From Candidatus Multivoradales bacterium (GTDB lineage: Bacteria > Acidobacteriota > Thermoanaerobaculia > Multivoradales > Multivoraceae), in NCBI GenBank assembly GCA_965223325.1, contig CBDCWI010000002.1, positions 1,280,001 through 1,344,000 of the forward strand: a stretch of 64,000 bases of DNA, written 5' to 3'. Below, one piece after another: positions 107 through 15,677 of this stretch. The position numbers and the translations under genes are program-made. Each line of letters starts with the position of its first letter. Within the stretch, counting starts at the first letter, position 1. The notes beneath the pieces were generated by a model. It was not told where the DNA came from. It saw only the letters and a list, made by a program, of their open reading frames with translations, and did no database searches.

Positions 107-1459
107 TCAACTGCGGCCGGCGAGCCACTCCTGACCGACATGAGAGATGACCAGGCGACGTTTACCGCGTCCACTGAGAGGGATTTCGGCGGTCCAGTCG
201 ATGGTGATCTCGACCTGGCCGCGAGTAGCGGCCAGGATCTCGCGGCAGAGCGTAGCCTCCACCAGGGCACGGTCGGCGCCCTCCCGGGCGACCAGACGCA
301 CCCGCAGGTCCTCTAGTGTTTCCTGAACCACCTGATAGTGCTCCAGGTGCTCTTCGAGCGACTTCATCAGCACCACGAAGAAGTGCATGACCAGAAAGGT
401 CTCGTCGGGCAGAACGATCAGGTCGGGTACCCGCCCCTCGACACGCTCGAGCATCGGGAGGGTCCGGCCGCAGAGGCAGGTGGCGTCAGGCGGTGCCGGC
501 ACCGCCAGATCACCGACTTCGTAGCGCACCAGGGGCATGGCGAAGTTGTCCAGCTGCGTGAGCACGACGCGCCCGAGCTCCCCGGGCGCACACGGGCCGT
601 CTGCTCCTAGCACCTCGAAGATCGCGTTCTCGGGGTGGAGGTGGTAACGGGTTTCGCTGTGCGCGCACTGGCTCGCCACGTGGAAGCCTTCGCCGCCGGC
701 CCCGTAGTAGTCGAAAACCCGCTGTTTGAAGACCCGCTCGATCGCTTCACGATAGGGCGTGTAGAGGGCATCACCGGTAGCCGTGATGCCATCGACCTCC
801 GGCACCTCGAGGCCGAGAGACTCGAAGCGCCGAGCCACGGCATAGAGCGACGACGAAAAACCGTTCAGATGCGCTGGCTCACTGCCCCTGGGCGACAGGG
901 CCCTTTGAACCGCACGAGCGTCGAGATCATCGGCGTTCATCGTCAGGTAGGCGCAACGAAACAAGCGATCCTGGAGTTTCTTCTTCCAACCCAGGCGGGG
1001 ATTCAGGTTCACCGTCACGTAGCGATCGCCCGGCGAGTACCCAGCCCAGTTCCAGATGCGAAAACGCAGCGCCCAGAACCAACTCTCCTGGGTCGCCGTG
1101 CGATAAAAGACCATCGGTCGCCCGGTCGAGCCACTGGTGGCATAGCGATAGACCTTCTCGTTCGTTTCGAGCGGAAAGAGGCCTTCCGGCGCATCGCGAA
1201 GGTCGTCCTTGGAAACCACCGGCAGCCCCGACAAGAGCTCGTAGTCCGAAGGAGGCCCTTCGCGGTTCTCGAACCCGCGATAGAAGGCACTCTTCTGACT
1301 TGTGGCGAGAAGCCGCTCGAGCTTTTCTTCCTGGCGTGCCCTCTGCTTCTCTCGCGACAGATTCTCCGACTCGTGCAACTGGCCGATGAGCGGCACAATG
1401 TGCGTGCCATTCGCCCGATCGAGAAGCGGGAACACCAGCTTCTCGAAAACACCACTCAC
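107..1459 (-). CDS. phenylacetate-CoA ligase-like (PaaK/CapK family) adenylate-forming enzyme
   Basis: AMP-binding motifs YATSGSTGRP, DYYG..E, RYEVGD and GRVPD; ~450 aa. Confidence 0.8.
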   Translation of the reverse strand: MSGVFEKLVFPLLDRANGTHIVPLIGQLHESENLSREKQRARQEEKLERLLATSQKSAFYRGFENREGPPSDYELLSGLPVVSKDDLRDAPEGLFPLETNEKVYRYATSGSTGRPMVFYRTATQESWFWALRFRIWNWAGYSPGDRYVTVNLNPRLGWKKKLQDRLFRCAYLTMNADDLDARAVQRALSPRGSEPAHLNGFSSSLYAVARRFESLGLEVPEVDGITATGDALYTPYREAIERVFKQRVFDYYGAGGEGFHVASQCAHSETRYHLHPENAIFEVLGADGPCAPGELGRVVLTQLDNFAMPLVRYEVGDLAVPAPPDATCLCGRTLPMLERVEGRVPDLIVLPDETFLVMHFFVVLMKSLEEHLEHYQVVQETLEDLRVRLVAREGADRALVEATLCREILAATRGQVEITIDWTAEIPLSGRGKRRLVISHVGQEWLAGRS

Positions 1460-3036
1460 TCGTGCTCCTTTGCCCCGGCGAGCGCTTCGAGCAGGGCCGA
1501 ATCGATGCGTGCCTTGACCGTGCGCCGGTCGAGGCCGAGGCGGCGGGCTGCTTCGACGTAGCTGCCGGCCTTCGAGTACACCAACGTCGTGTACCCCGAG
1601 AGCAGCTCGTCGGCGTCGAGATCACCTACCTCGAGGCGCGCCAGAAAGCCGGCGAGACCCGGCGGGTCGACCGCCTCGCCGCCGGCCGGGTGGTACGAGC
1701 CGCGCACCAGGACGTTGCGTACGCACTGCTCGAGCTCTCGGAAGTTTCCGCGCCATGGATACTCCGACCCGAGGTTCTGCCGAACGAAAGCCGTCGTCTC
1801 GGCGGCCAGCGAATCGGCCTCGGAGGCGCCCACCATACGCCCGGCGATGGTCGCGATCAGCCGACCGAGCTCAGACGGTGCATCGTCGAGTTGCTCGCGC
1901 AAGGACGGCGTGCGCACGATGTCCGAGCAGATTCGGTAGTAGAAGTCTTCGCGCATGCGGCCTTCTGCCATCTCGACCTCGGGCTCACGGTTGGTCGCCG
2001 CAATCAGTTTGCCGCGGAAGCGCCGGGTCTCGGTATCGCCGAGGCGCTGGAAGGTCCTGGTCTGGAGAACCCGCAACAGCTTTACCTGGATGGTTTCATC
2101 GATCTCGCCGATCTCGTCGAGAAACACCGAGCCGAGTGGTGGACAGACCTCGAACCAGCCCTCCCGGTCGGCCACTGCGCCGGTGAAGGCGCCACGCTGG
2201 TGGCCAAAGAGTTCCGACTCGATCAAGGTCGGCGAGAGGGCCACCAGGTTGAGGGCGAAAAAGGCTCCCTCGAAGTCTTCGGCAAATGCCTGCCTGGCCT
2301 GGTCAAAGGGAATGAATCGAGAAAGACCGATGGCCCGCGCAACTAATTCCTTACCCGTACCTGAGGGGCCGGTAATCAGCGTCGTGACATCGCCCATGCG
2401 GTCATAGAGGCCACGGCGGTAGCGGCGCATGTCGTGAGTGAAGATCGACTGCCAAACCGCCGAGCGCAGCGCCGCCGCCGGTTTCGAGGCACCAGCGAAG
2501 GTGCCGAAGACGAAGTGAAAGGCCCGTCGCAGCTGGAAGAACCACCCGAGGCACAACGAGGCGTCGAGGCGCTCGACCATCCCGAGGTCTGGATCGTTGA
2601 TCCAATGGTGAATCTGCTTCTCGAGCGCCGGGAAGATCGCCACCGGGCGGGTCGATGCCACACCGCCGCGCGCAATCAGTGCGCCGAGATCACCCTGATG
2701 CAGGTTATAGAGGTGGTAGAGAACGAGATCACGCCACAGGCGGCGCGTCTCCTCGCTGGGCCTATCGCCCTTTCTGTTCTTTTCTACCAGTCGAGGGCGC
2801 GCACGCTCGAGCAGCGCCGCGAGCCGCTGGTCGATCAAGGGTAGGTTGGGATTCTTCTCGTAGTCACTGGCCCGGTGCCAGACCTCCTGACCGAGCTCCT
2901 GGTACTGGCCGCCAAGAGCTTCGCGCTCGAGGGACACGCGCTCGACGGAGAAAGGATCAGCGTGTGACAAGCGCGCCACCGCCTCGACGAAAGCCCGGTC
3001 GGAACCGGCAAACAGATGGGGCGCAGCACTAGCCAT
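1456..3036 (-). CDS. sigma54-dependent enhancer-binding transcriptional regulator (AAA+ plus C-terminal HTH)
   Basis: Walker A GPSGTGKE, ESELFGH.GAFTGA, FLDEIGE, YPWRGNFRELE, HTH AARRLGLDRRTV; no REC domain. Confidence 0.92.
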   Translation of the reverse strand: MASAAPHLFAGSDRAFVEAVARLSHADPFSVERVSLEREALGGQYQELGQEVWHRASDYEKNPNLPLIDQRLAALLERARPRLVEKNRKGDRPSEETRRLWRDLVLYHLYNLHQGDLGALIARGGVASTRPVAIFPALEKQIHHWINDPDLGMVERLDASLCLGWFFQLRRAFHFVFGTFAGASKPAAALRSAVWQSIFTHDMRRYRRGLYDRMGDVTTLITGPSGTGKELVARAIGLSRFIPFDQARQAFAEDFEGAFFALNLVALSPTLIESELFGHQRGAFTGAVADREGWFEVCPPLGSVFLDEIGEIDETIQVKLLRVLQTRTFQRLGDTETRRFRGKLIAATNREPEVEMAEGRMREDFYYRICSDIVRTPSLREQLDDAPSELGRLIATIAGRMVGASEADSLAAETTAFVRQNLGSEYPWRGNFRELEQCVRNVLVRGSYHPAGGEAVDPPGLAGFLARLEVGDLDADELLSGYTTLVYSKAGSYVEAARRLGLDRRTVKARIDSALLEALAGAKEHE

Positions 3037-3111
3037 TCCCGGATCCTATGCAAGTCCGGGCCCGAAGATACAACCCGGGCCCAAGGGGCCTTCAGGTGTC
3101 AAACAGGAGGC

Positions 3112-3645
3112 TCAAGCCTTGACGACCTTGGTACTCGCCATCATGTCGTGGATGCAGCGTCGATCGGCACGGAAAATGAAGAGAACGTCGATAAGGCCAA
3201 AGAAGGGAATGAAGCTCACCAGCAGCTGCGTCGCCGCAAAGCGAATGAACACCACCTTCCCGACCGGAACCGGCGAGCCATCGTCGTTGACGATCTTCAC
3301 TCCGAGCATGCGCTTGCCGATCGTCTGACCATTCTCTGCCAGGAGTTTGAGGGTCCAGCCACACCAGGCAACAAGGCCGAGAAGCACGCCCAGAGCGCCG
3401 CCGAGCAAAGCGAGGTCCTCGTCAACCGAGACCATCGAGACCATAACCAGGAAGCCCGGCAGCAACACGGCCATCAGACTCAGATTGTCGACGATCTTGG
3501 CCACCAGGCGCGAACCCGGATCCGCCAGGGTCGAGTGGTCAGTGGCGGTCGGAGCGACTCCGCCGACGTCCGCGTTTGGCGCCGCGTAGGGGTTGTCGTA
3601 GGGCGAAAGGCTGGGTTGCAGAGTCTGCGGGTCGGACATCGTCAA
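3112..3645 (-). CDS. RDD family membrane protein
   Basis: NPYAAP N-terminus, RLVAKIVD, GQTIGKRMLGVKIV, RRCIHDMMAST. Confidence 0.88.
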   Translation of the reverse strand: MTMSDPQTLQPSLSPYDNPYAAPNADVGGVAPTATDHSTLADPGSRLVAKIVDNLSLMAVLLPGFLVMVSMVSVDEDLALLGGALGVLLGLVAWCGWTLKLLAENGQTIGKRMLGVKIVNDDGSPVPVGKVVFIRFAATQLLVSFIPFFGLIDVLFIFRADRRCIHDMMASTKVVKA

Positions 3646-3967
3646 TTTTCTCCAAAATACATCGAATACCAGACATACAAAGTATACATGGTTTCTAGCT
3701 CGATTCCCAGCCTCCTAAGTAAACCTCTCATTCAAAGGGACTTACGAGCCAGACGGAGGTCAGGTCGGCAGTCACCAGGATTCAGGCCCTCCCCAGAATC
3801 ATCCCAGTCATTTCCCAGTCGATCGCCCGGCGTTTGCCCGGCGACGGCCGGGCTGCCGATCCAACGAGGCAGGATCACTCCAGCGAGAATCCGCGGCCAA
3901 ACGCAGCTGCGGTGTGACGACCTTCGGAGGCTGAAGGCGAAGCGGGCCGCTTGCGCCGCAAACGGAG

Positions 3968-5251
3968 CTAGTACCGGAGAACCGAGAACAGCATCGCCTT
4001 TTGAACGTCAGTCGAGAATCCATCGGCGCTGTAGTCGGCGATCTTGAGACCGACGACCTGGCCGCCGGGCGCCTTCCAGGTCACGAGAGCATCGACTTCG
4101 GTGCCGTAGTCGCCCGAGGTGTTCTCGGCCGAAAAGTCGTGGTAGGCGGCCTGTACATTCCACACACCCTTGCCCCAGCCAAGCTTCAGGTAGAGGTCTT
4201 CGAGACCGTTGGCAGGAGTTGCGAGGAACTTGTCGGCGAAGCCGTTGAACTTGTGCAGTGTGGCAAGCGGGGTGATGAACGCCGTCGTCCCGTCGCCTTC
4301 GAGAACTTCGGTCCCGAGGCGAGCGCTCCAGGCACCCTGTTTGAGCCCGCCCTCGACCCGCAGGTAGTCGTGCGAGAGATCGGCGGCGTTGTCGCCATAG
4401 TCGTCCTGGCGGGCGAACTGTAGATCGTAGAGGCCCGCAAGACCAGAGGAACCGAGCGCGCTCGAGCCCGTGAAGCTCACCGCGACGGTCGCCCGTGAGC
4501 GCCCAGAAAGAGCCGCGGCGTCGTAGTCCAGCCACTGCCCCGAAATCCCCAACACTCCCCCACCGAACGCACGTCGCACGTCGGCTAGATGTCCCGTCAG
4601 GTCCTGCCGAGCGCCGGTGATCGTATGCACCCGGTCGAGGAAGACGTAGGAGAGCTTCCAGGCCTCCTTGCCTTCTCCGATGGCGGTATCGATCGACACG
4701 GCATCGAAACTCTGGTGGTTCTGACGCCAGGCAACCGCGCCAACGAAACGCTGGTCGCCGAGGTTCTTCTCGAACCGCCCGGCCTTGACCGCCACCTGGC
4801 CGCCGAAGTCGTAGGCCACCCAGGCCTGGTTGATCTCGGTGAGATCGGGGTCGGCGACCACGGGACGATTGGTCACACCGTTGTGAAGGGAGCGCGCACC
4901 AACATTGTTGTAGAGCTCCTCGCGCGGGCCACTGACGTCTTCGACCTCCAGCCCGAAGGTAAAGCCGCTCAACGGGGCACTCTGGAACACGAAACCGGAA
5001 CGCAGGGTGAGCGCCTCGCCATCGCGGCCTTCGAAACGCGCGGCGTCGTCATCGACAAACTCGAAGCGCGGTCTGAAGGAGACACCCCACTTGCCCTTCT
5101 TGAAAGTCTCCCCGAGGGTCGAAGCCACTTCATCCTCACTGTCCGATGCAGCCTGGGCAGCCGGAGGGGCGACCAGCGCGAGCGAGAAGAGGAGGGCAAG
5201 AGAGGCCAGGGCCGACGATCGGACAGTCCAACGAATGGTTCTATAAAGCAT
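3968..5251 (-). CDS. outer-membrane beta-barrel protein (alginate-export/AlgE-like porin)
   Basis: Signal peptide, alternating beta-strand pattern, RFVGAVAWRQN.QSFDA and TPLATLHKFNGFADKFL motifs, C-terminal aromatic residue; start may be 5275. Confidence 0.75.
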   Translation of the reverse strand: MLYRTIRWTVRSSALASLALLFSLALVAPPAAQAASDSEDEVASTLGETFKKGKWGVSFRPRFEFVDDDAARFEGRDGEALTLRSGFVFQSAPLSGFTFGLEVEDVSGPREELYNNVGARSLHNGVTNRPVVADPDLTEINQAWVAYDFGGQVAVKAGRFEKNLGDQRFVGAVAWRQNHQSFDAVSIDTAIGEGKEAWKLSYVFLDRVHTITGARQDLTGHLADVRRAFGGGVLGISGQWLDYDAAALSGRSRATVAVSFTGSSALGSSGLAGLYDLQFARQDDYGDNAADLSHDYLRVEGGLKQGAWSARLGTEVLEGDGTTAFITPLATLHKFNGFADKFLATPANGLEDLYLKLGWGKGVWNVQAAYHDFSAENTSGDYGTEVDALVTWKAPGGQVVGLKIADYSADGFSTDVQKAMLFSVLRY

Positions 5252-5326
5252 TGAAAAACTCCTGAGGGTGTGCACCCTACGTCCGAGAGGTAAGAAAAGG
5301 GAAAGGCGAAAAGGCGAGAAGAGGAA

Positions 5327-5914
5327 CTAGCCGCCGCTGGCCGTATGACCTAGCGGATCACTGACACTCGCCACCGCGACGTGGCACTGCCGGCAATTCA
5401 CGCGCTCGGGATGGCTGGTACGCAACTCGGGGCGCGCCGCATCGCCGTCATGACAGGCCAGGCAGTTCTCGCGCATGAAGACCCGATGCGGCAGTCGCGG
5501 CGGGGCGATCTCACTCGCTCGATCGCCGTGCACCCCGCCGGGCCCGGTGGCCGAGACTTCGAGGGCCTTGCCCACGAAGGTGGAGGCCACGAAGACGTCA
5601 TCGGTTGCCACCTCGACGTGACACTGGCGGCAGCGGGCAGCCGCCATTCCCAGCGTGCCGCCATGCGGCAGAGCTGGCGAGAGACCGACGTTTGGAACCT
5701 CGATCGCCCGGTCGCCATGACAGGAAACACATTCCGCCGAGAAACCGAGGTGCGGGATGACCGGAGGCGCACCGTGAAAGGCCCGGCGCTCGGCACGCTC
5801 GGCGTACGAAGCAGGATCTTCTCCAGGGCCCGGGCCCGGCGAGCAGCAGAGCGCGCCGAGGGACGCCACGAGAATGACTGCCAGTGTTCGAACCGTGAAT
5901 ACGGGGGGGCCCAT
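5327..5914 (-). CDS. napB: NapB-like nitrate reductase cytochrome c subunit, tetraheme (duplicated module)
   Basis: GAPPVIPH..CVSCH..CRQCHV repeated as APPRLPH..CLACH..CRQCHV; directly follows napA. Confidence 0.8.
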   Translation of the reverse strand: MGPPVFTVRTLAVILVASLGALCCSPGPGPGEDPASYAERAERRAFHGAPPVIPHLGFSAECVSCHGDRAIEVPNVGLSPALPHGGTLGMAAARCRQCHVEVATDDVFVASTFVGKALEVSATGPGGVHGDRASEIAPPRLPHRVFMRENCLACHDGDAARPELRTSHPERVNCRQCHVAVASVSDPLGHTASGG

Positions 5915-5925
5915 CTCGCGACCTC

Positions 5926-8340
5926 TCAGACCCGTTCGACGCGCACGGCGCACTTCTTGAAGTCAGGCTCTTTCGAGATGTTGTCCAGCGCGTCGAGTGT
6001 GAGCTCGTTGATCAACTTCGACTCGTCGAAGAAGGGCACGAAGACCGATCCTTCGGGCGGTGCCCCCCGCCCGTCGACGGCGGCTTGCAGTTCGATGGTG
6101 CCGCGGCGACTCGTTACCCGCACTCGCGACCCGTCCTGCACGCCGAGGCGCGCCGCATCGGCTGGATTGAGCTCGACGTAGGCCTCGGGTACCGCCTGGT
6201 GCAGCTGCCGTACGCGGCGGGTCATCGAACCGCTGTGCCAGTGTTCGAGGACCCGGCCGGTCGAGAGCCACAGAGGGTACTCGTCGTCTGGGATCTCGGC
6301 TGGCGGGTGGTAGGGGCGCAGCCAGAAGGCCGCCTTTTCGCCATACCCCTTGGCCTTGTAAAAGTGCACACCCTCGTTCTTCTTGACGTATGGGTCGATC
6401 CCGGCGGCGTAGCGATAGGGGGTTTCGCGCCCGTCGACAACCGGCCAGCGCAACCCACGGGTGGCCTTCAGATCCTCATAGGAGGCGAGATCTTTGCCGA
6501 CCCCGAGGGTGAAGCTCCGATACTCCTCGTACATCGCCTCGTGCCAGTCCCCCTCCCAGGGGAACAGGTACCCCATGCCCATGCGCCTGGCCACTTCGAC
6601 GATCTGCTCGGCGTCCTCGACCGCCTCGCCGGGAGGCTCGATCATCTTGTTCCAGTGCTGGGTGCGCCGCTCGGTGTTCCCGAAGACACCCTCGCGCTCG
6701 ATCCACGCGGCGGCAGGGAGCACGAGGTCGGCCATCTCGGTGGTCGGTGTCGGATAGATCTCGGAGACCACCACGAACCGACCGTCACCCGGCTGGCGCT
6801 CGAAACGATGCAGGTTGGGCAGCGACAACCACGGGTTGGTGGTCTGAATCCACATTGCTTTGACGTCACCGCGCCGAAGCGCACGAAACATGTCGACTGC
6901 GTGGTACCCGGGCTTGGGATTGATCGTCCCGGGTTCGAGGCCCCAGATCTCCTCAGTCTTCTTGCGGTGGTCGGGATTCATCACCACCATGTCGGCCGGC
7001 AGTCGATTCGACAGCGTGCCCACTTCGCGTGCCGTTCCGCACGCCGAAGGTTGCCCGGTGAGACTGAAGGGGTTGGCACCGGGGCGGCCGATCTTACCGG
7101 TGATCAGATGGAGGTCGTTGATCAGGTTGTTCATCCAGGTGCCGCGAGTGTGCTGGTTGACCCCCATGCACCACAGGCTGACCGTGCCGCGGCTGCGGGC
7201 CCCGTAGATCTCTGCCAGCGAGTGGATGGTCGCAGCAGGCACTCCGGTGATCTCACTCGTGCGCTCGGGGCTGTAGTCCGCCAGGAAGGTACGCAGCTCG
7301 GCGAGTGAACTGTCACGGCCCTTGTCTTTCCAGGTGTAGCGCTCGGCCTGGTCGCCGTAGCAGCCATAGCCGATCTCGTCCTGGTCTTCGATGCCGCGCT
7401 TCCAGACCACGTTCTCGTCGATGAACGCCTTGTCGATGGCGTCGTTCTCGAGCAGGAGATGCATGATGCCGTTGGCCAGCGCCAGATCGGTGCCGGGCTT
7501 GAACTGCACATAGAGATCGGCATACTGCGAGGTCGCCGTCCGCCGTGTCGCGAGGTCGATGATGCGAACGTCGGGGCGCTGGCGCCGGGCCTCGAGAATG
7601 CGGCTGAACAAGACCGGATGCGCCTCGGCCATGTTGTTGCCCCACAGCACGAAATCGTCGCCAACCTCGAAGTCTTCGTAGCAGCCCATCGGCTCGTCGC
7701 TCTGGAACTGGGTCACGAAACCCATCACCGCGCTCGCCATGCACAGACGCGCATTCGGGTCGATGTTGTTCGAACGCATTCCGCCTTTGACCCACTTGAG
7801 CGCCGCATACCCATCGTGCACGGTCCACTGTCCTGAGCCATAGACGGCCACCGACTCGGGACCACTCTCGGCCAAGGCCTCCTGGAACTTCTCGGCGATC
7901 AGATCGTAGGCCTCGTCCCAGGAAATGCGTTCGAGCTTCCCGTTGGCATTGCGGCGCTGCGGGTACAAGAGGCGGTCTTCGCCGTAGAGAAGACCCGGCA
8001 GGTGGTAGCCCTTGACACACAAGAGACCCCTGTTGACAGGGTTCTTGGTGTCGCCGCGCACGGCTACGGCGCGCCCATCCTGGACCCCGACCTCGACCCC
8101 ACAGCCGGCTCCACAGAAGCGACACGGGGCCTTCTGCCAGTTCACACCCTCACGATCGAGAGCCGCGACGTCGGTGTCGTCGGCGGCTGCCTCGATCTCT
8201 CGCGCTCGTTCCTGGTCGCTGCAAGAGAAGGCCGCTGCGGCCGCACCACCGGTACCAAGAACAGTCAGGAATCGACGTCGGTCGACACCACGTTTCGGAT
8301 CGTTCGGATTCTTCATCGGGTTCGTTTTCCGGAAGGCCAT
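5926..8340 (-). CDS. napA: periplasmic nitrate reductase catalytic subunit
   Basis: Tat motif DRRRFL, [4Fe-4S] motif CRFCGAGC...C, Mo-ligand region NARLCMASAV, GQPSACGTAREVG, C-terminal PDFKKCAV. Confidence 0.93.
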   Translation of the reverse strand: MAFRKTNPMKNPNDPKRGVDRRRFLTVLGTGGAAAAAFSCSDQERAREIEAAADDTDVAALDREGVNWQKAPCRFCGAGCGVEVGVQDGRAVAVRGDTKNPVNRGLLCVKGYHLPGLLYGEDRLLYPQRRNANGKLERISWDEAYDLIAEKFQEALAESGPESVAVYGSGQWTVHDGYAALKWVKGGMRSNNIDPNARLCMASAVMGFVTQFQSDEPMGCYEDFEVGDDFVLWGNNMAEAHPVLFSRILEARRQRPDVRIIDLATRRTATSQYADLYVQFKPGTDLALANGIMHLLLENDAIDKAFIDENVVWKRGIEDQDEIGYGCYGDQAERYTWKDKGRDSSLAELRTFLADYSPERTSEITGVPAATIHSLAEIYGARSRGTVSLWCMGVNQHTRGTWMNNLINDLHLITGKIGRPGANPFSLTGQPSACGTAREVGTLSNRLPADMVVMNPDHRKKTEEIWGLEPGTINPKPGYHAVDMFRALRRGDVKAMWIQTTNPWLSLPNLHRFERQPGDGRFVVVSEIYPTPTTEMADLVLPAAAWIEREGVFGNTERRTQHWNKMIEPPGEAVEDAEQIVEVARRMGMGYLFPWEGDWHEAMYEEYRSFTLGVGKDLASYEDLKATRGLRWPVVDGRETPYRYAAGIDPYVKKNEGVHFYKAKGYGEKAAFWLRPYHPPAEIPDDEYPLWLSTGRVLEHWHSGSMTRRVRQLHQAVPEAYVELNPADAARLGVQDGSRVRVTSRRGTIELQAAVDGRGAPPEGSVFVPFFDESKLINELTLDALDNISKEPDFKKCAVRVERV

Positions 8341-8391
8341 TGTTTAGGGCGCCGCTGCGGGCACTTTTAGGGGTGCGAGCTGAGCGAGAGC

Positions 8392-10044
8392 TCAGGGCCC
8401 GCTCGGAGCTGAGCCCTGTCCGTAGCGTTCCTGCATCTGACGACGGATCTGTTCCATCTGGTCTGTCGCACCCTGTTCGAACCAGGCGTGCTCGGGACGT
8501 GCAAGGAGGTCATTGATGACCTTCTCGGCCCGGGCCGCACCAGCGGCGTTGCCGTGCGAACGCCCATGGGCGACGAGCTCACGCGCCTGCGGGATGAGCT
8601 CCATGTAGAAGCGCTCGGCAACTTCATACATGCCGTGCCAATGGGTGTAGTCGGGAGCCATCATCGCAGCGCCATGGCGAGCGCGCCGGCCCTCGTGATG
8701 CCAGAGGTAGAACCAGGTCCACTCGATCTCTTCGTCGAATTGCGTGTCGGAGATCAGGCCGTTGCTGCGCAGCGCAGTCACAATGTCGCGACCGGGCTTG
8801 GCGAACTTCTCGTTGTAGAGAATCACCAGGTTGTCGTACTGCTTGTAGAAGCCCTCGATGTAGGAAGGCGTGTGGCAGTGCGAGCACACTTCCTTCATCC
8901 GATTGCGCTTCGAGGTCGCCGTATCGACGGTCAGCTTCTGGCGTTCGATCGGGTCTGTCTCCTTGACCAGGTGGCCGTTGATGTCGGTATCCATCACCAG
9001 CGACACCGGCGGGCGGTTGGTCCACGAAATGCGAGTCCCAGGATCGTGGGTCACCTCGCCGCCGTTGCGACTGTGGCCCGACATGTGGCAGGTGGCGCAG
9101 GTCGGCGCTTCAGAGTAGTCCTCGCCGAGGACCCAGTTCTCACCGTCGAGATCCATCTCATCCTTGAGATCGCGATAGGCGATCCCGTGTTTGGACTCTT
9201 CGAAGATCTCCTTCTGCGGATGATCTGGGCCGAGGTGACACTTGCCGCAGTTCTCAGGCTGCCGCGCACGCCGCGGCGAAAAGTCATGCCGGCTGTGACA
9301 TGCCGAGCAGGAACCGCGCGACCCGTCGAGGTTCAGGCGACCGATGCCCGTGTTGGGCCAGGTGCCTTGATGGAAAACTGGCCGGCCGTTGTCGGCCCGT
9401 TTGATACGCGCCACCGCGGCGGTGTTGGTTGGCTTTCCGTCCTCGTCCGGCTCGAGCTCATCGACCGTAATGCGACTTCCGTCGGCGGCCTCGAGCGCCA
9501 CCTTCGAACCGTGACACTGCTGGCAGCCGCTGAACGCCGAGGCACCGCCCTCGACCAACTCCATCGGGCGACCGGGGGTTGGCGAGTGAGGGTTGAAACT
9601 CCCGCGCGCACCCTCGACCGTTTCGGCGAGGAAGTTGTCGAGCGAGGCCAGGATGTTGCCGGCCGCCGCATGGTGACTGCTTTCGAACTGGTGCGCCTCT
9701 TCCTGGTGACACTGCCCGCAGTCGCGTGGTGTGACGACGGTCGCGATCAGGCTGCCGTAGTGCGAGTGCGCATCCGCCTCGCCCTCGTTGGCCTGATGGC
9801 AGTCATAGCACCCCACGCCACTGTGGGCGTGCTGGCTGCCTTCCCAGTGCTCGTTGATGCCGGGCGTGGTCTGACCATGGCAATCGACACACGACGCCGA
9901 TGAAGCCGGCACCGCGACTTTGACGGTCGTTACTCCGGCCTCTTCGGCCTTGCGGATGACTTCCATCCACTGCACGAAGACCAGCGACAGCAGGAAGACA
10001 GCCGCCAGGATGATGATGATCTTTCTTTTCTGATTCAGTGTCAT
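8392..10044 (-). CDS. octaheme cytochrome c, hydroxylamine oxidoreductase (HAO) family, with N-terminal membrane anchor
   Basis: Eight CxxCH motifs (CVDCH, CYDCH, CGQCH, CQQCH, CSACH, CGKCH, CATCH, CSHCH); HAO-type CSACHSRHDFS..ARQPENCGKCHLGPDHPQKEI and APDYTHWHG. Confidence 0.9.
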   Translation of the reverse strand: MTLNQKRKIIIILAAVFLLSLVFVQWMEVIRKAEEAGVTTVKVAVPASSASCVDCHGQTTPGINEHWEGSQHAHSGVGCYDCHQANEGEADAHSHYGSLIATVVTPRDCGQCHQEEAHQFESSHHAAAGNILASLDNFLAETVEGARGSFNPHSPTPGRPMELVEGGASAFSGCQQCHGSKVALEAADGSRITVDELEPDEDGKPTNTAAVARIKRADNGRPVFHQGTWPNTGIGRLNLDGSRGSCSACHSRHDFSPRRARQPENCGKCHLGPDHPQKEIFEESKHGIAYRDLKDEMDLDGENWVLGEDYSEAPTCATCHMSGHSRNGGEVTHDPGTRISWTNRPPVSLVMDTDINGHLVKETDPIERQKLTVDTATSKRNRMKEVCSHCHTPSYIEGFYKQYDNLVILYNEKFAKPGRDIVTALRSNGLISDTQFDEEIEWTWFYLWHHEGRRARHGAAMMAPDYTHWHGMYEVAERFYMELIPQARELVAHGRSHGNAAGAARAEKVINDLLARPEHAWFEQGATDQMEQIRRQMQERYGQGSAPSGP

Positions 10045-10060
10045 CAGGACTCCAAAAGGG

Positions 10061-11152
10061 TCAGTGGGCGACGGCTGCCTCCCAGATCGTCAGGATGGTG
10101 ATTGCGAACACGCCGACAATGCCAATCCAGACAGTCGCTTCTCGAAAACGTGTGTTCTTGCGGATCCAGGCGTCGATGAAGGGCCAGGTGAACATGACGA
10201 ACACGATGAAGCCCATCGACAGAATCGCAGCGGTTCCCGAGAACAGCTTCAACCAACGAAACGTCACATAGAAGAACCACTCGGGCTTGATCACGTCGGG
10301 GGTGACCAAGGGATCGGCCTTGGGGCCGAGGGTAGCCGGGAAAACAGTCGCCAGGAAAGACAAGAGGATCATCAGGGTGAGGCCGGCCATGACCTCGGAG
10401 AGCACGTGATCCGGGAAGAAGTTGAAGGTCTTCTTGGGCCTTTCTTTCTCGTCCTCGAACTCGAACTCGGTCACGCCCTGCAGCCGAATGATCGCAATGT
10501 GCACCACGATCAGCAGAATGAGGGTGATCGGAAGAACGGCGGCGTGGAGGACGTAGAAGCGCGGCAGAGTGTTGTCGTTGTAGACCTCTCCGCCGAGCAT
10601 GAAGTCGCGCATCAGGCCGCCAACGATCGGAACGTTGGCGGCGATATTGGCGCCGACCGTCGCACCCCAGAAGCTGAGCTGCTCGAACACCAGGCTGTAG
10701 CCGGTGAAGCCGAGCATCAACGACGTCAACAAGAGGCACATACCCACCATCCAGTTGAGCTCGCGCGGCTTTCTGAAGGCGCCAGTGAAATAGACCCGCA
10801 TCTGATGGAGCACGACCGCCGCAATCATCAGCGTCGCACCCCAGCGATGCAGGCTACGCAAGAACCACCCATACGACGCCTCGTTGGTGATGTAGAGCAC
10901 CGACTCGTAGGCGCTCTCTGGCGACGGCTTGTAGTAGAGCGCCAGCAGAATGCCGGTGACAATCTGCACCACGAACAGATAGGCCGGGGTGCCGCCGAGT
11001 GCGAACCACCACCGCTTGAGGTGGTTTGGGACCGGTTCATTGGTGAGCTCGCGCAGCTGCTCCATCGAGAAGGGCAGACGTTCCTGAATCCACTGGGCGG
11101 CGCGAGCTCCAGTCCTCCTGGTGAGCGAACGTTCGTGAGCCGGAGTCGTCAT
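10061..11152 (-). CDS. cytochrome b of a Rieske/cytb (bc-type) complex, fused b6 + subunit IV type
   Basis: GWFLRSLHRWGA, LHQMRVYF, FYVLHA...VVH heme ligands; Qo-site variant KPEWFFY. Confidence 0.92.
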   Translation of the reverse strand: MTTPAHERSLTRRTGARAAQWIQERLPFSMEQLRELTNEPVPNHLKRWWFALGGTPAYLFVVQIVTGILLALYYKPSPESAYESVLYITNEASYGWFLRSLHRWGATLMIAAVVLHQMRVYFTGAFRKPRELNWMVGMCLLLTSLMLGFTGYSLVFEQLSFWGATVGANIAANVPIVGGLMRDFMLGGEVYNDNTLPRFYVLHAAVLPITLILLIVVHIAIIRLQGVTEFEFEDEKERPKKTFNFFPDHVLSEVMAGLTLMILLSFLATVFPATLGPKADPLVTPDVIKPEWFFYVTFRWLKLFSGTAAILSMGFIVFVMFTWPFIDAWIRKNTRFREATVWIGIVGVFAITILTIWEAAVAH

Positions 11153-11162
11153 CTAACAGCCC

Positions 11163-11816
11163 CTAGGCGCTCTCGTCGTTGGCGGTCTGGTCGGCCACAG
11201 AGTGGGACGCCCGCTGCAGGTCCGGAAACAGGCACGGGTCATGACCAGGACCGATGGGGCAGGTCCCACGAAACACCTCGGGCGCTTCGATGGTGCCTTC
11301 GCCCGCCGCGACCTCGGCAGCTTCGAGCTCGATGAACAACAGGCCGTTCTCGACCTTGAGTGGGTAGGTCGGCAGGCTCTGTCCGGCTTCGGCCGGAGGA
11401 CCGCTAGTCGCCACCCCGGCAGGGTCGAACACGCCGTTGTGACACGGGCAAAAGAAGCGGTCGTTGGCAGCTTCCCAGTGCACCTGACAGCCGAGATGCG
11501 GGCAGGTAGACGACAGCGCAACCAACGAGTCGTCGCCCTCGCCCTGGCGGGCAATGTTGATCGTCGAGCCCAAAGGTGTACGGAAAACAATTGCCTCACC
11601 GGCAGCGATCCTCTCGGCGCCCGTGACGTACATCCAACGCGAGGTTTCGCCCGCCGCCGGATAGGCAAAGCGAGCCATGAAGACGGCCAGGGTGCCGTAG
11701 GCCGCCGCCAGTGCGCCGAACATCGAAACGCCAACTGCCCGGTGCAGAAAACCGCGGCGATCCTGCTCATCGGCCGGGTTGCTGGCCGGAAGGTGGTCAG
11801 AATGAGTGGTGTTCAC
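11163..11816 (-). CDS. Rieske [2Fe-2S] protein
   Basis: Tat-like DRRGFL plus TM helix; CPHLGC and CPCHNG boxes; GPP. Confidence 0.93.
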   Translation of the reverse strand: MNTTHSDHLPASNPADEQDRRGFLHRAVGVSMFGALAAAYGTLAVFMARFAYPAAGETSRWMYVTGAERIAAGEAIVFRTPLGSTINIARQGEGDDSLVALSSTCPHLGCQVHWEAANDRFFCPCHNGVFDPAGVATSGPPAEAGQSLPTYPLKVENGLLFIELEAAEVAAGEGTIEAPEVFRGTCPIGPGHDPCLFPDLQRASHSVADQTANDESA

Positions 11817-11883
11817 GCCGGGTGATCTCCCTGGACAGAAACGAAGAGGCGAGAGCGCAAAGGGGTCACAACAACGGGAATCA

Positions 11884-13533
11884 TCAGAAGGGCCTGAAGC
11901 CCGGCGAACCGAAGCGCTCCAGCGAGAAGAGGTGGTACATCGGATAGGCGTAGGCGATGATGATCAAAAGCACGGCCACTGCGGTCCACAAACCGAGGCG
12001 GTCCCACAGAAGCTCGCCACCGGTGACCTGCTCGGAGGCATGGAGCGGCCTGGCGAATTCGATCGAGGGCGGGTCGATATGTTTGCCCCAGATCATCGTC
12101 GCAGCGACCACGGCGATAAAGCACAGTGAGCTCACAAACAGCACCATGCCGCCGAGAGCCGAGAACATCGTCAGGTTCTCCCAGGCCTTCGAGGCCTCCG
12201 AGCCGGCGAAGTTCGAACTGTAGACCCGCCTCGGTTCACCGAGCAGCCCGGTGACGTGACTCGTCCAGGCGAACATCACCATGCCGAAGAACCACAGGTA
12301 GGGCTGAATCGTCGCGACCTCCCGCAGCATCAATGCGCGACCACTCAAACGCGGCAGGAGCCAGTACGAGGCACCCATGAACGAAAGCGCCACAGCAGTA
12401 CCAACGGTCAGATGAAAGTGCCCATGGATCCAGGCGGTGTTGTGCACCATCGTGTTCATGGCAAACGCCGCGTTGATCGCGCCGCCCCAACCACCGACGG
12501 CAAAGGTGATCATCGCCAGGGCGATGCACGCGAAGAACGGCTCGCGCCAGGGCAGCTTCCAGATCCAGTTGAACAAACCTGTAGCGCCGCGCAGGCGACC
12601 AGCGATCTCGAGCGAAGCGATGACTGTAAAGGCGGTGATCAGGCTCGGAAACAGGATCGCGTAGGTGGTCGCGGTATGGACCAGCTTCCACGACGCCGGA
12701 ATCCCCGGGTCGGTGAACTGATGGTGGAAGCCGACCGGAGTCGAGAACAGGATGAACATCACGAACACCACTCGGGCCAAGCGGTCACTGAACAAACGCC
12801 CCCCGGCGACCTCGGGCAGCACCGTGTACCAGAGCATGTAGGTCGGCAACAACCAGAAGTAGGTCAGCGGGTGACCGAACCACCAGAACCAGGTGCGCGC
12901 GACAATCGGATCGATGCGCTCGATCCACCCCAGAGACCAAGGTACCAGTTGACCAAGCACCTCGGCCGCAAGACCCGAGGTCGCCAGCAGCCAGATGATC
13001 ACCGAGGTGAGCATCGCGTGCATGGCAAGTGGCAGAGGCTCGACCTTGCCGCCGTTGCGGTTCTCGCGACGCCAGGCAAGCCAGGTGCGGATCATCACCA
13101 CGCACCAGATCCACGACCCAACGATCAGAAGGGTGGCGCCGATGTAGAACAGCGGGTGGGCCTGGAGCGGCGGATAGAACGTGTAGAGAACCGTCGCCTC
13201 GCCACTCAGAATCGTAAGAGCAGTAAGCAGTGAGCCAATCGTTGCCACCCAGAACGCACTCCACCCCATCGCCTCGCTCTCGAGCCGGCCGAGCGTCCGC
13301 CGAGCGATGACATAGCCGAGGCCCATGATGAAGAACGTCGTAAAAACCAGGGCCATCAAGACACCGTGCGCGGTCACCGAGACGTAGTAGACCTCGGGCG
13401 AACGAAACGCCACATCGAGGTCGGCACGCGAAAGCGACTGCATAACCGCCATCAAGGCGCCAATGCCAAAGGCTCCAATCGAGACGCCAAAGTTGGCGAG
13501 CGGCAGCTGATTGCGCCGCGTGGCTTCGTTCAT
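11884..13533 (-). CDS. cbaA: heme-copper oxidase subunit I, B-family (ba3/b(o/a)3 type)
   Basis: TAHGVLM, FWWFGHPLTYFWLLP, GFHHQF.DPGI, PSLITAFT, HNTAWIHGHFHL, PRR. Confidence 0.9.
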   Translation of the reverse strand: MNEATRRNQLPLANFGVSIGAFGIGALMAVMQSLSRADLDVAFRSPEVYYVSVTAHGVLMALVFTTFFIMGLGYVIARRTLGRLESEAMGWSAFWVATIGSLLTALTILSGEATVLYTFYPPLQAHPLFYIGATLLIVGSWIWCVVMIRTWLAWRRENRNGGKVEPLPLAMHAMLTSVIIWLLATSGLAAEVLGQLVPWSLGWIERIDPIVARTWFWWFGHPLTYFWLLPTYMLWYTVLPEVAGGRLFSDRLARVVFVMFILFSTPVGFHHQFTDPGIPASWKLVHTATTYAILFPSLITAFTVIASLEIAGRLRGATGLFNWIWKLPWREPFFACIALAMITFAVGGWGGAINAAFAMNTMVHNTAWIHGHFHLTVGTAVALSFMGASYWLLPRLSGRALMLREVATIQPYLWFFGMVMFAWTSHVTGLLGEPRRVYSSNFAGSEASKAWENLTMFSALGGMVLFVSSLCFIAVVAATMIWGKHIDPPSIEFARPLHASEQVTGGELLWDRLGLWTAVAVLLIIIAYAYPMYHLFSLERFGSPGFRPF

Positions 13534-14021
13534 GAACCAGCCCCCGCCGCTCCAGCCCCCAGCACAATCAGCTTGCCCTGCATCATGTGGTGAGAGAGGC
13601 CGCAGAACTCGTTACACACAATCAGGTACTCGCCGGGCTTCTCCAGTTCGACACTGAACTCGCTGACGTAGCCGGGCGTCACCGTGACATTGGCGTTGGT
13701 TCCAACAATCTGAAAACCGTGGATCACATCTGGGCTGGTGATGCGAAACCGCACCAGTCCGGGCGATACTCGAATCACCCCTGGCCTGAAGGCGAACATT
13801 TCGGCCACCGCGATGACCAGAGTCGAGCCGTCCGGCTGTTGCTCGACGCGAGGATCGGCGAACTCGGTCTCGGTTCGCACAAGAAGCGGATCAATGGTCT
13901 CGACGTGGCTCGGAGGCTCGACCGCGTGAAGAACAGCGGCAATACACACCGTCGCCAGGAACGACGCGATCATCAGGATCGAGAACCAGATCCACCAACG
14001 CTCATAGAGGTCGACCTTCAT
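13530..14021 (-). CDS. cbaB: heme-copper oxidase subunit II (CuA), ba3 type
   Basis: Single TM with YERWW, DVIHGF, CNEFCGLSHHMM CuA motif; 4-bp overlap with subunit I. Confidence 0.92.
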   Translation of the reverse strand: MKVDLYERWWIWFSILMIASFLATVCIAAVLHAVEPPSHVETIDPLLVRTETEFADPRVEQQPDGSTLVIAVAEMFAFRPGVIRVSPGLVRFRITSPDVIHGFQIVGTNANVTVTPGYVSEFSVELEKPGEYLIVCNEFCGLSHHMMQGKLIVLGAGAAGAGS

Positions 14022-14109
14022 CGCCCGCTCCAGGTGCACCTGGCCGCCAGGCCCCTAGCCACCCTGCCATGCAGAGCAGAAGGTCTATCGGTCATCGCAC
14101 GCGTTTCTC

Positions 14110-14277
14110 TCATTGAAGAGGTGCTCCGCGTTCGAGAAACACAAGGACATAGAGCCCAACCCACCCGAGGATGAAGAGCACTGCATAAACCACCATCACA
14201 GCGAGAGTCCCCTTCGGATGCTCAGGAAGGTCTTCAACACGGACGGTGTGTTCGGGGTGTGACTGCCGATCGTTCAT
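14110..14277 (-). CDS. cbaD: ba3-type oxidase small subunit IIa (55 aa)
   Basis: Manual translation MNDRQSHPEHTVRVEDLPEHPKGTLAVMVVYAVLFILGWVGLYVLVFLERGAPLQ has the PKG.LAV...W.G.Y..F..RG pattern of Thermus subunit IIa; too short to appear in the ORF track. Confidence 0.82.
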   Translation of the reverse strand: MNDRQSHPEHTVRVEDLPEHPKGTLAVMVVYAVLFILGWVGLYVLVFLERGAPLQ

Positions 14278-14679
14278 CTACAGGCCTCTTTGCAACCGGT
14301 CGCCTGATCTGCTACCAGCGTCAGAAGTTAGCGAGGAGCCACGGGCGACGACATACGTGAAAGCACGTAAAGAGATGGTGTGGAACAACAGGGGAAGGAG
14401 GGAAAGTCTGCGGGCGGCGCGAAGACTCTAACTGCTAGCTGACTCCGAACAAGAGATCGCGAGCCCGGGCAACAGCCAAGCCACCGTCCGAGCCCAGCGC
14501 CAAGACTGCATCACCAAAGAACCAATCCCGTCACAAAAGCGAGCTGCCGAAGGCACGAGCATGCCCCCACCCACCTAAGACTTTGCGGGACGTCGTCCGC
14601 CCGGCCTTCCTGCCCCATCCATTCCAACAACCGAGACCAAAACAACCGAAACAACCCGAGCAACCCGAGTCGTCAAGAA

Positions 14680-15378
14680 TCACAGAGAATCAAAAACCCC
14701 CCGCACATCGCCGAATCCAGCAGCCCGATCAGCCACCTCCTGCAAAGCGACCATCCGCTCCTCGAGCTCCAAGCGGCAGTGCTCGAACTCCGGCGAACGC
14801 ATGCGCGAAGGCACCTCCAGAGGCTCGCCGTACACCACTTCGACGCGCGCGAACGGCCAGGCCAAGAGAGTGCGGTCCCAGGTACGCGCGAGAATGCGCG
14901 CCGGGCGCGCCGAAACCGTGATCGGCACGATCAGACCACCAGTGCGCTGAGCCAGCGACACAATGCCGCCCTGGACCCGGCCGCGCGGCCCCCGCGAACC
15001 GTCGACCGCCAGGCAGGACCCCAGCTCCGGATCGGCACGAACGCGTCGAATCATGTCGACGATCGCCTGCAGACCGTCACGACCGGAGGAGCCCCGCACC
15101 ACCTCGAATCCCAGGCGCTCCTCGATCCTGGCCATCGCATCGCCGTCGAGACTCTTCGAACACATCGACAACCAGCGCCCGTTGCGGGCCCTGGCCATGA
15201 AGCACAGCAACATGAACGTTCGACCGTGCAGGAAGGCTCCCACGACCGGCCGGCCGGAAGCGCGCGCAGCGTCGAAATGTTCCCGACCAGTCTCGCGGTA
15301 ACGCCACGAACGATCGAGCAAGCGCAGGAGCGCCAGTGCCAGGATGGGCACCACCTGCCTCATCAACACCCGCTTCAT
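14680..15378 (-). CDS. DUF374 / lysophospholipid acyltransferase family protein
   Basis: FLHGR, SKSLDGD, VRGSS..G, AVDGSRGP, WDR.LL.WPF. Confidence 0.82.
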   Translation of the reverse strand: MKRVLMRQVVPILALALLRLLDRSWRYRETGREHFDAARASGRPVVGAFLHGRTFMLLCFMARARNGRWLSMCSKSLDGDAMARIEERLGFEVVRGSSGRDGLQAIVDMIRRVRADPELGSCLAVDGSRGPRGRVQGGIVSLAQRTGGLIVPITVSARPARILARTWDRTLLAWPFARVEVVYGEPLEVPSRMRSPEFEHCRLELEERMVALQEVADRAAGFGDVRGVFDSL

Positions 15379-15419
15379 CGGCAGGTCCTCTCAGGGAGAC
15401 TCAGCGGGCCGTAACAAGG

Positions 15420-15677
15420 CTAGGAGCCGTCGCTCTTGGTGCGCTGATCGAGAAACGTCACCAGGTCACCGATGGTCTTCATGCCCATCATTTCTTCGGC
15501 CTCGATCTCGACCCCGAACTCCTGCTCCAGATCGAAGATCAGATCGAGCACCGCCAGCGAGTCGAGACCGAAAGAATCGAAAGAGGTCACTTCGGTCACC
15601 GTGCTCCAGTCGACATCCTCGGTTGCCGATTCCTCCATGATCCGGCCGAGGCCGGCAATGATCCTCTCGCGCTCCAT
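15420..15677 (-). CDS. acyl carrier protein
   Basis: Acidic 85 aa protein with GLDSL phosphopantetheine site and LEQEFGVEI. Confidence 0.92.
   Translation of the reverse strand: MERERIIAGLGRIMEESATEDVDWSTVTEVTSFDSFGLDSLAVLDLIFDLEQEFGVEIEAEEMMGMKTIGDLVTFLDQRTKSDGS

Follow-up and report, generated by a model that had tools for sequence, protein, structure and literature searches.

A cluster of nine genes in Candidatus Multivoradales bacterium was analyzed within a 64-kb window of contig CBDCWI010000002.1, to which the coordinates refer unless another location is given. The nine genes all lie on the minus strand, between positions 3968 and 14277. The core of the cluster is a triad of genes for a Rieske protein, for a fused cytochrome b and for an HAO-family octahaem cytochrome c with a membrane anchor. 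This triad is, in our judgement, rather likely to be a quinol:nitrite oxidoreductase that also passes electrons to a periplasmic nitrate reductase (Nap) and to a ba3-type oxidase. The locus does not represent a new kind of module; it is a variant of one already predicted from genomes. The oxidase is an optional addition that lies outside the conserved module, and the new element seems to be the recurrent genetic coupling of one clade of ba3 oxidases to the triad.

In the proposed mechanism, the Rieske protein, the fused cytochrome b and the anchored octahaem would form a three-subunit membrane complex in which the octahaem replaces cytochrome c1 or f. Quinol would be oxidized at an intact quinol-oxidizing (Qo) site, with one electron reaching the octahaem haems by way of the Rieske cluster. 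The second electron would be recycled through the two b haems, which would give a Q-cycle with proton release for each electron that reaches the periplasm. The five-coordinate haem 4 of the octahaem, with its Asp-His pair and probably without a tyrosine cross-link, would reduce nitrite, most likely to ammonium. Two optional branches may leave the haem wire of the octahaem. One would lead to a tetrahaem “double NapB” and from there to NapA, which would reduce nitrate to nitrite, and the other, in this lineage, to the CuA centre of the ba3-type oxidase, which would reduce O2 to water. An AlgE-type porin may admit anions through the outer membrane. A first-pass annotation of this DNA had already drawn one Q-cycle complex that feeds several acceptors, and this wiring diagram is the most economical reading of the locus. 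The gene identities, the conserved core, the absence of the usual alternatives and the recurrent link to the oxidase all fit it, whereas the oxidase as a fixed part does not.

Conservation of the Gene Triad

Genomes were scanned, one per species, and 591 pattern matches were obtained, 578 of them with a gene for a relative of the octahaem; the 80 best loci were retained. The nine window proteins were mapped on these 80 loci by tblastn, and matches that covered less than 40% of the query were dropped, as were NapA matches below 50% identity. The Rieske and cytochrome b genes were found directly upstream of the octahaem gene in 67 of the 69 loci with at least 1.8 kb of upstream sequence, the exceptions being L039 and L058. 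NapA is encoded directly downstream of the octahaem in 46 of the 72 loci with at least 1.5 kb of downstream sequence, and the tetrahaem gene follows the NapA gene in 38 of the 39 loci with room for it. The triads without nap (26 of 72 loci) had no recurrent downstream partner among the 30 open reading frames (ORFs) scanned, which came from 20 of these 26 loci. Since nothing consistent is found downstream where NapA is missing, the triad forms a unit by itself.

By their titles, the triad-bearing records belong to Acidobacteriota (Thermoanaerobaculia and Vicinamibacteria), Gemmatimonadota, Planctomycetota and several candidate phyla. The proteins of these records are still 65-79% identical to those of the window. 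A quick tree was made from the window and the 50 of the 80 loci in which both ORFs are complete. It groups phyla above chance, though not cleanly, with 5 changes for Acidobacteriota and 7 for the presence of nap. The module is patchy in the class of the window, where it was found in 18 of 121 sampled genomes and, within one genus, in 5 of 17. This distribution suggests an accessory, possibly mobile unit.

The complete nine-gene order recurs in three relatives of the same family, G001 (also of the same genus), G008 and G012, and the part from cbaA to the HAO gene recurs in G013. Conservation of the order in relatives, on which the first-pass annotation had staked its proposal, was thus observed, most clearly for the triad. 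The wider synteny that it had envisaged, with HAO, Rieske/cytochrome b, nap and the oxidase together, holds for the Rieske/cytochrome b-HAO-NapA core; the oxidase did not prove to be a conserved part.

Rieske Protein and Cytochrome b

The translated Rieske protein has a twin-arginine leader and both cluster-binding boxes intact, CPHLGC and CPCHNG. Cytochrome b is a single polypeptide whose N-terminal part is b6-like and whose C-terminal part resembles subunit IV, and its residues H102, H116, H203 and H218 and the P290-E291-W292 of its PEWF motif are invariant in 51 of 51 sequences. The Rieske boxes, the two pairs of haem-ligand histidines and the PEWY-type Qo motif are those of the bc1/b6f superfamily. 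The third subunit of that superfamily, a monohaem cytochrome c1 or f, is missing, and the octahaem gene occupies its position; cytochrome c1 (PF02167) had no match in the whole genome. Because there is no c1 and an octahaem stands in its place, the complex is regarded as a non-canonical member of the superfamily, like the anammox and Caldithrix forms. Val-Phe follows the CPCHNG box. In high-potential Rieske proteins these positions are occupied by a Ser and a Tyr that form hydrogen bonds, and the window protein may therefore carry a centre of lower potential, of the menaquinol type.

The Octahaem as Candidate Nitrite Reductase

The octahaem is placed in the HAO family (PF13447) by its above-cut-off match, by eight CxxCH motifs (at residues 52, 79, 109, 174, 246, 266, 316 and 387) and by an Asp-His pair over the catalytic haem. 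Its N-terminus is a hydrophobic segment with no evident cleavage site. In a single-sequence search the closest solved structure was IhOCC of Ignicoccus hospitalis (PDB 4qo5, FEBS J 2016; E 3.7e-41). A profile built from 41 full-length representatives, chosen out of 150 listed, matched both IhOCC (E 1.6e-110) and Nitrosomonas HAO (E 5e-53). The Asp-His in the distal pocket of Nitrosomonas HAO is matched in the alignment by D274-H275 of the window protein, and D274, H275 and all eight haem motifs are invariant in 51 of 51 octahaem sequences, in which the mean column identity across phyla is 69%. IhOCC resembles the window protein in being a membrane-associated member of the HAO family and differs from it, and from Nitrosomonas HAO, in having Asp-Val in place of Asp-His. 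No Rieske/cytochrome b neighbour is mentioned in the available part of PMC4429474. Within its clade the window octahaem has a long terminal branch (0.40 versus a median of 0.16). The nearest metagenomic relative shares 85% identity with it, and no species representative exceeds 79%.

The tyrosine bound covalently in Nitrosomonas HAO is Tyr467, according to the part of PMC11726666 that was available. In the profile alignment (posterior about 0.6, coordinates only), chain residue 467 of Nitrosomonas HAO corresponds to His468 of the window octahaem, and the cross-link is thus probably absent from the window protein. The C-terminal third of the octahaem, searched alone, matched 4qo5 only and not Nitrosomonas HAO, and the representative P0260, tried as an HAO-like bridge sequence, proved to be IhOCC-like. 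Since neither gave a bridge to Nitrosomonas HAO, the tyrosine question rests on the profile alignment. HAOs without the cross-link are described as reductases in the accessible text of PMC8042395; the epsilonHaos reduce nitrite and hydroxylamine, the HAOr of Kuenenia reduces nitrite to NO, and oxidation by these enzymes is negligible.

An oxidative role for the octahaem, from hydroxylamine or NO to nitrite as in nitrifiers, would agree with its membership in the HAO family and with an invariant tyrosine, Tyr466, two residues before His468 in a region where the alignment posterior is only about 0.6. It is nevertheless extremely unlikely. The position aligned to the cross-link tyrosine is a histidine, a Rieske/cytochrome b complex is an electron donor to its c-type subunit and not an acceptor from it, and the co-location with NapA points to reduction.

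Reduction of nitrite by the octahaem is the favoured reaction. The whole genome (6.7 Mb, 98.2% complete, 2 contigs) is heterotroph-like, and family searches found no NrfA, NirS, NapH, NapD or Hcp in it. NirK gave only weak multicopper matches in the whole genome (33.9 bits versus a cut-off of 296.3). Because NrfA and NirS are absent and the NirK matches are weak, the octahaem is the only candidate dissimilatory nitrite reductase found in the genome. The genome has three haem-copper oxidases (PF00115 matches), two of them A-type, with no NOR among them. Ammonium is therefore favoured over NO as the product, and the porin, which accompanies nap-less triads as well, also argues for nitrite reduction to ammonium. 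The octahaem, Rieske, cytochrome b and tetrahaem genes are each single-copy in the genome (tblastn with the window proteins).

Predicted Contact of Cytochrome b and Octahaem

A fold model of cytochrome b with the octahaem gave an ipSAE of 0.83, while the best of 3 controls gave 0.00; the controls were unrelated proteins, which may lack a membrane helix, and own alignments were used, so the calibration is rough. In that calibration 116 of 157 solved complexes and 2 of 215 mismatched pairs attained the mark. The model runs share at least 98% of their contacts, with a partner pLDDT of 85 or more. In the modelled interface, residues 1-38 of the octahaem face cytochrome b residues 107-123 and 338-360 and the loops at 271-295, which hold the PEWF motif. 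The model supports binding of cytochrome b by the N-terminal helix of the octahaem, and the pair is predicted to be in contact. The contact score may overstate binding, because a hydrophobic anchor could score well against any membrane protein.

Alternatively, the octahaem could be an electron wire only, a bulky replacement of c1, and the complex a plain quinol:cytochrome c reductase for NapA, the ba3 oxidase and perhaps NosZ. The octahaem gene does sit at the position of a c1/f gene in a genome without c1, its anchor is predicted to bind cytochrome b, and the triad stands without an adjacent reductase in the 26 of 72 loci that lack nap. However, an Asp-His pair and haem-4 motif kept without exception, in a protein so conserved across phyla, are not expected of a mere wire. 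In addition, an anion-type porin accompanies nap-less triads, and no other dissimilatory nitrite reductase was found in the genome. We consider the wire reading quite improbable.

NapA, Its Tetrahaem Partner and the Porin

NapA scored 914.7 bits with TIGR01706, just under the cut-off of 930.55, and was above the cut-off with NF010055. With this equivalog-level match, a twin-arginine leader and an N-terminal 4Fe-4S cysteine cluster in the translation, the protein has the features of NapA. The next gene had been called napB, for a dihaem subunit, in the first-pass annotation; its product is a tetrahaem, with four CxxCH motifs and not two. The two halves of the tetrahaem are 39% identical to one another over 62 aa (E 2e-7). 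With Pfam NapB (cut-off 25.1 bits) the whole protein scored 25.0 bits and its halves 19.8 and 18.6 bits. Because the halves are alike and each is weakly NapB-like, the protein is a tandemly duplicated NapB-like unit, and it is NapM-like. It had 0 matches among solved structures.

The porin had 1 match among solved structures, at E 0.086, and all 30 of its Atlas feature matches are Alginate_exp clusters. A homologue of the porin lies beside the module in 18 of 80 loci, nap-less ones included, and the protein may be a channel for nitrate or nitrite.

The ba3-Type Oxidase

The best solved match of CbaA is the ba3 oxidase of Thermus thermophilus (E 2e-126), with A-type chains at E 1e-15 or worse, and its ligand motifs HPxxY, HH and HxH align with those of the Thermus enzyme. 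With a CuA-containing subunit II and a CoxIIa match above the cut-off, the oxidase belongs to the B family (ba3-type). It is like T. thermophilus ba3 (PDB 1ehk, 1xme) in having three subunits, I, II with CuA, and IIa; homologues of cbaD precede cbaB in the relatives also. Because subunit II has a CuA site, the oxidase takes its electrons on the periplasmic side, from a c-type cytochrome or a cupredoxin, and not from quinol. The electron donor of Thermus ba3 is the soluble cytochrome c552, and its genes, unlike those in the window, are not linked to a Rieske/cytochrome b complex.

Linkage of the oxidase to the triad was followed in 30 relatives of the same genus, family or order. The octahaem is encoded in 11 of them and a close CbaA orthologue (63-70% identical) in 8. 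All 8 CbaA-bearing relatives have the octahaem, and this oxidase clade is missing from all of the 19 relatives that lack the octahaem. Since kin are not independent, the co-occurrence should be read as a pattern without statistical weight. In 7 of the 8, no more than 5 kb separates the oxidase from the triad; four arrangements occur, two of which lack nap. The first, the type found in the window, is cbaDBA followed by Rieske-cytb-HAO-napA-napM(-porin), seen in G001, G008, G012 and, in part, G013. In the second, the Rieske-cytb-HAO-napA-napM module is followed by cbaDBA (G024 and loci L008, L009 and L022). The third is Rieske-cytb-HAO-cbaDBA without nap (G020 and L020), and in the last, cbaDBA is divergent from Rieske-cytb-HAO-porin (G003). 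Nine regions were mapped; G024 and L012, and likewise G019 and L003, are seemingly the same genomes and are not counted as extra cases. Repeated re-linking in different orders, twice without nap, suggests that this oxidase clade works with the triad itself. The four cba-linked loci in the tree all fall in the HAO clade of the window (SH-aLRT 97); the fifth, L020, is outside the tree sample. No paper that links a ba3 oxidase to the Rieske-cytochrome b-octahaem module was found in a search that left most subscription journals and supplements outside.

Dependence of the ba3 family as a whole on the module was also considered and rejected. Among the 16 class-sample genomes with a B-type match, 13 have no HAO, and the close orthologue clade alone is tied to the module. 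In G020 (L105, G020:C27, about 6800-8400), cbaA stands directly after the octahaem gene and is split into two adjoining pieces in different frames, which is a frameshift or a sequencing error.

In the strongest form of the wiring, the octahaem would be at once c1-equivalent, nitrite reductase and direct CuA donor. The nine genes would then encode one obligate supercomplex with three outlets (O2, nitrate and nitrite) for one Qo site, and the oxidase might mop up NO. We regard this form as unlikely. If true, it would mean proton-motive nitrate ammonification alongside micro-oxic respiration from one Qo site.

The genome also contains a nos cluster (G000:C1:515000-532000, L093), which encodes a full-length NosZ-like protein (530 bits, cut-off 625), a dihaem-cupredoxin protein, NosD and an ABC transporter. 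It is present though no NirS, no NOR and no NirK above the cut-off was found. This cluster, and the genetic tie of the oxidase to the HAO clade, could indicate a non-canonical denitrification in which NapA makes nitrite, the HAO makes NO as in Kuenenia HAOr, the B-family enzyme turns NO into N2O and nos completes the path to N2. Thermus ba3 has been reported to reduce NO slowly. Such a pathway is very unlikely here. CbaA retains HPxxY and every CuB and haem ligand found in true O2 reductases, Thermus ba3 is its closest match, and 75 of 80 triad loci have no such enzyme nearby. Organisms with nosZ and without other denitrification genes are common.

Alternative Electron Routes and Contrary Evidence

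Several observations weigh against the triad as the hub of the proposed wiring. First, the genome holds other electron routes. Nap is not its only nitrate reductase; a second one, NarG, is encoded at G000:C2:3732413-3736036 (L109) and scores 1467.7 bits (cut-off 1084). The neighbourhood of NarG is unusual, with an NrfD-family gene some 7 kb beyond it (C2:3743036) and a weak molybdopterin match between the two. Another NrfD-family gene, just upstream of a caa3 cluster, marks a locus like alternative complex III (ACIII), and the Rieske/cytochrome b complex is probably not the only quinol:cytochrome c route. One NapC/NirT-family tetrahaem cytochrome, the only one in the genome, is encoded 3 Mb away (G000:C2:4267411-4271070, L092) and is another possible route. 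Its gene adjoins those of a 780-aa beta-barrel and a multihaem “paired CXXCH” protein, and together they resemble a porin-cytochrome conduit of the kind that serves extracellular electron transfer. The search of the genome for the usual alternatives, which the first-pass annotation had proposed, found no nrfA, napH or nirS and no nirK above the cut-off, and it found this one NapC/NirT-family gene. The pattern of a Nap fed by NapC or NapGH is not what was found, since NapH and NapD are absent; NapG was not searched separately.

Secondly, only 5 of 80 loci, and 4 of the 45 with at least 9 kb on both sides, have the oxidase adjacent (10 kb away at most), and it is transcribed divergently from the triad in G003. 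Distant B-type oxidases (39-46% identical) occur in the 13 class-sample genomes without an HAO match. Third, the solved HAO-family enzymes are trimers, whereas Rieske/cytochrome b complexes are dimers, which is a mismatch in stoichiometry. Tyr466 and the rough calibration of the contact score, both described above, belong here too. Lastly, the cytb-HAO-napA stretch is fragmented in G001 (L100, G001:C2:1350000-1368000, about 6500-11700), one of the relatives with the full order. There, napA is in at least 3 ORFs, the octahaem in at least 2, and cytochrome b is 52% identical, while cbaA, the Rieske gene and the porin gene look intact. The fragmentation could be decay in the middle of the operon or local assembly errors.

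Some of these observations can be read as adjacency without a shared electron path, the ba3 oxidase being a separate unit fed by other cytochromes c and Nap being fed by the distant NapC/NirT. The 67-nt gap between cbaA and the Rieske gene, the divergent genes of G003, the location of the oxidase on another contig than the triad in G021, the monohaem cytochromes c beside the ACIII-like locus near the caa3 genes and the existence of one NapC-family gene would all agree with this. However, mere neighbourhood fits poorly with an oxidase linked to the triad in four arrangements and in 7 of 8 relatives with both, and with the absence of its clade from all 19 HAO-less relatives. NapA-NapM stands directly after the triad in 46 of 72 loci, and the NapC-family gene sits in a beta-barrel and multihaem cluster typical of outer-membrane conduits. 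We consider adjacency without a shared path quite improbable, and a triad that passes electrons to Nap and the oxidase is retained as the preferred reading.

Organization of the Gene Cluster

All ORFs of the nine co-oriented genes were present as first described (Table 1), and family searches agreed with their identities except for napB. By ORF coordinates, the gaps from cbaD to the porin gene are, in order, +70, -4, +67, +10, +16, +51, -28 and +51 nt. The first-pass annotation had given a range from a 4-bp overlap to about 90 bp; the maximum is 70 nt. The -28 nt overlap between napA and the tetrahaem gene becomes +8 if the ATG at codon 13 is used. Family searches found no napC, napGH, napD, nrfA or c1 gene within the window, as had been stated.

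Table 1. Features of the nine-gene cluster and its flanking region in the 64-kb window.
Feature	Position	Strand	Remarks
Non-coding region upstream of the cluster	14278..14679	-	Probable promoter site; the preceding gene is DUF374 (14680-15378)
cbaD, small subunit IIa of ba3-type oxidase	14110..14277	-	55 aa, one transmembrane helix; Pfam CoxIIa 24.8 bits (cut-off 20.7)
cbaB, oxidase subunit II with CuA centre	13530..14039	-	Pfam COX2; His, then C-x3-C-x3-H-x2-M
cbaA, B-family haem-copper oxidase subunit I	11884..13533	-	COX1 313.5 bits
cbaA/Rieske junction, 67 nt	11817..11883	-	No terminator-like site; fold z = 0.28
Rieske 2Fe-2S subunit	11163..11816	-	Pfam Rieske 43.7 bits; twin-arginine leader RRGFL
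Fused cytochrome b	10061..11152	-	Pfam Cytochrome_B 179 bits and Cytochrom_B_C 37.6 bits
HAO-family octahaem cytochrome c, N-terminal membrane anchor	8392..10044	-	PF13447 81.6 bits (cut-off 21.9); eight CxxCH
napA, periplasmic molybdopterin nitrate reductase	5926..8340	-	NF010055 944.2 bits (cut-off 904); leader RRRFL
Tetrahaem “double NapB” (NapM-like)	5327..5953	-	Four CxxCH; presumed NapA donor
AlgE-family outer-membrane beta-barrel (porin)	3968..5275	-	Pfam Alginate_exp 38.3 bits (cut-off 25.2)

The short gaps and the lack of terminator-like sites between the genes suggest that the nine genes form one operon. A scan of positions 3000-15500 gave 1 promoter-like site, which is intragenic, and 13 terminator-like sites against 8.4 +/- 3.6 expected. 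The only intergenic one of these is a hairpin at 14674-14650, directly behind the DUF374 gene. Five junctions were folded, and none stood out from shuffled sequence (z from -0.80 to +0.32). A promoter for the cluster is probably in the non-coding region upstream of cbaD, in which no sigma-70-like site scored and no sigma-54-like match was found. An internal promoter is possible at 11817-11883, because the oxidase genes are divergent from the Rieske gene in G003. A sigma-54 promoter for the cluster was considered and rejected; a short consensus gave 28 matches in the window against 24.3 +/- 4.4 expected, none of them in the upstream region.

A gene for a sigma-54 activator, whose first 215 residues have no family match, lies at 1456-3036, and no link between it and the cluster was found. 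Directly downstream of the porin gene is a gene for an RDD-family membrane protein (3112-3645, minus strand). A plus-strand ORF at 3016-4047 was rejected as a gene; it has no family match, and the RDD-family ORF on the minus strand, with its high third-position G+C, fits better. The spacers at 5276-5326 and 11817-11883 are pyrimidine-rich on the coding strand, with long C/U runs ahead of the porin and Rieske genes and no predicted structure.

Comparison with Known Systems

The first-pass annotation knew of no characterized system with the full combination. The wiring is not without precedent, since one of Rieske/cytochrome b, Hao and Nap is already in print (PMC5317091, PMC5767232, PMC12954380). 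In the parts of these papers that were available, its function is a proposal made from genomes, and a biochemical assay of the complex is not among the results. Nothing on a Rieske-cytochrome b-octahaem module was found in PMC8906906, bioRxiv 2020.10.01.322446 or PMC12758564.

In Caldithrix abyssi, genes Cabys_2564-2556 encode napM-napA-napGH, Rieske and cytochrome b proteins and an adjacent epsilonHao, in an organism without NrfA or NapC. Its authors propose from the genome that the Rieske/cytochrome b pair feeds NapM and/or epsilonHao and is electrogenic (PMC5317091, available part). The Caldithrix locus is like that of the window in its Rieske/cytochrome b without c1, its tetrahaem NapM, its NapA and its octahaem Hao lacking the tyrosine at that position. 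It is unlike the window in having napGH and napF, another gene order and no linked oxidase, its oxidase being thought defective; the two octahaems are compared by description (PMC5317091, same part).

Nitrospira moscoviensis and N. japonica have a gene for an octahaem nitrite reductase (ONR), taken to convert nitrite to ammonium, that adjoins Rieske and cytochrome b genes. Reverse transcription PCR demonstrated that this gene is expressed in strain NJ1 (PMC5767232, text available in part). Unlike the window genes, the Nitrospira ONR gene lies near glnA/amtB and is read as assimilatory, with no nap or oxidase linked; its likeness to the window octahaem is by description (PMC5767232, same portion).

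The complex of Kuenenia stuttgartiensis (Kuste4569-4574) has a b6-like cytochrome b, a subunit-IV-like part, a Rieske protein and an HAO-like octahaem for which nitrite reduction is proposed, and co-migration of all subunits is reported (PMC12954380, in the part available). It differs from the window in an extra multihaem and in a subunit of the NAD(P) oxidoreductase type, and its proposed role is electron bifurcation to NAD(P)+; that part of the paper treats the role of the homologous complex in anammox as an open question (PMC12954380). In the window, by comparison, the octahaem is the sole c-type subunit and cytochrome b is one fused polypeptide.

Other systems share single features with the window. 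A Qcr-dependent periplasmic nitrate respiration in Campylobacter jejuni, in which Nap receives its electrons via Rieske/bc and the process is electrogenic, was reportedly described by Garg et al. in 2018. The Qcr complex of C. jejuni has its own dihaem cytochrome c. Unlike the window genes, those for Qcr are not clustered with nap, and there is no HAO-type subunit. Deferribacter has napMADGH-hao without Rieske/cytochrome b, in a paper whose available text also refers to a Nap respiration in Campylobacter that depends on Qcr and to an N2O respiration in Wolinella that depends on Rieske/bc (PMC6896113). In addition, a survey of Phycisphaerae names HAO-like proteins as possible nitrite reductases and, in the part seen, reports no bc1 complex (PMC11266412).

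Implications

The Rieske-cytochrome b-octahaem module occurs in at least 578 species-representative genomes from many phyla. The version in the window is the simplest, with three subunits and no NAD(P) module. Because it is the simplest form and is found in a large, heterotroph-like genome, it may provide a tractable model for the replacement of cytochrome c1 by a catalytic multihaem enzyme. The linkage to a ba3 oxidase suggests that the module is used at the oxic-anoxic boundary. Nap and nitrite reduction of the NrfA or Hao type are textbook non-electrogenic steps. If these steps are routed through a Q-cycle, the energy yield of nitrate ammonification would be higher, and dissimilatory nitrate reduction to ammonium would be more competitive against denitrification in soils and sediments.

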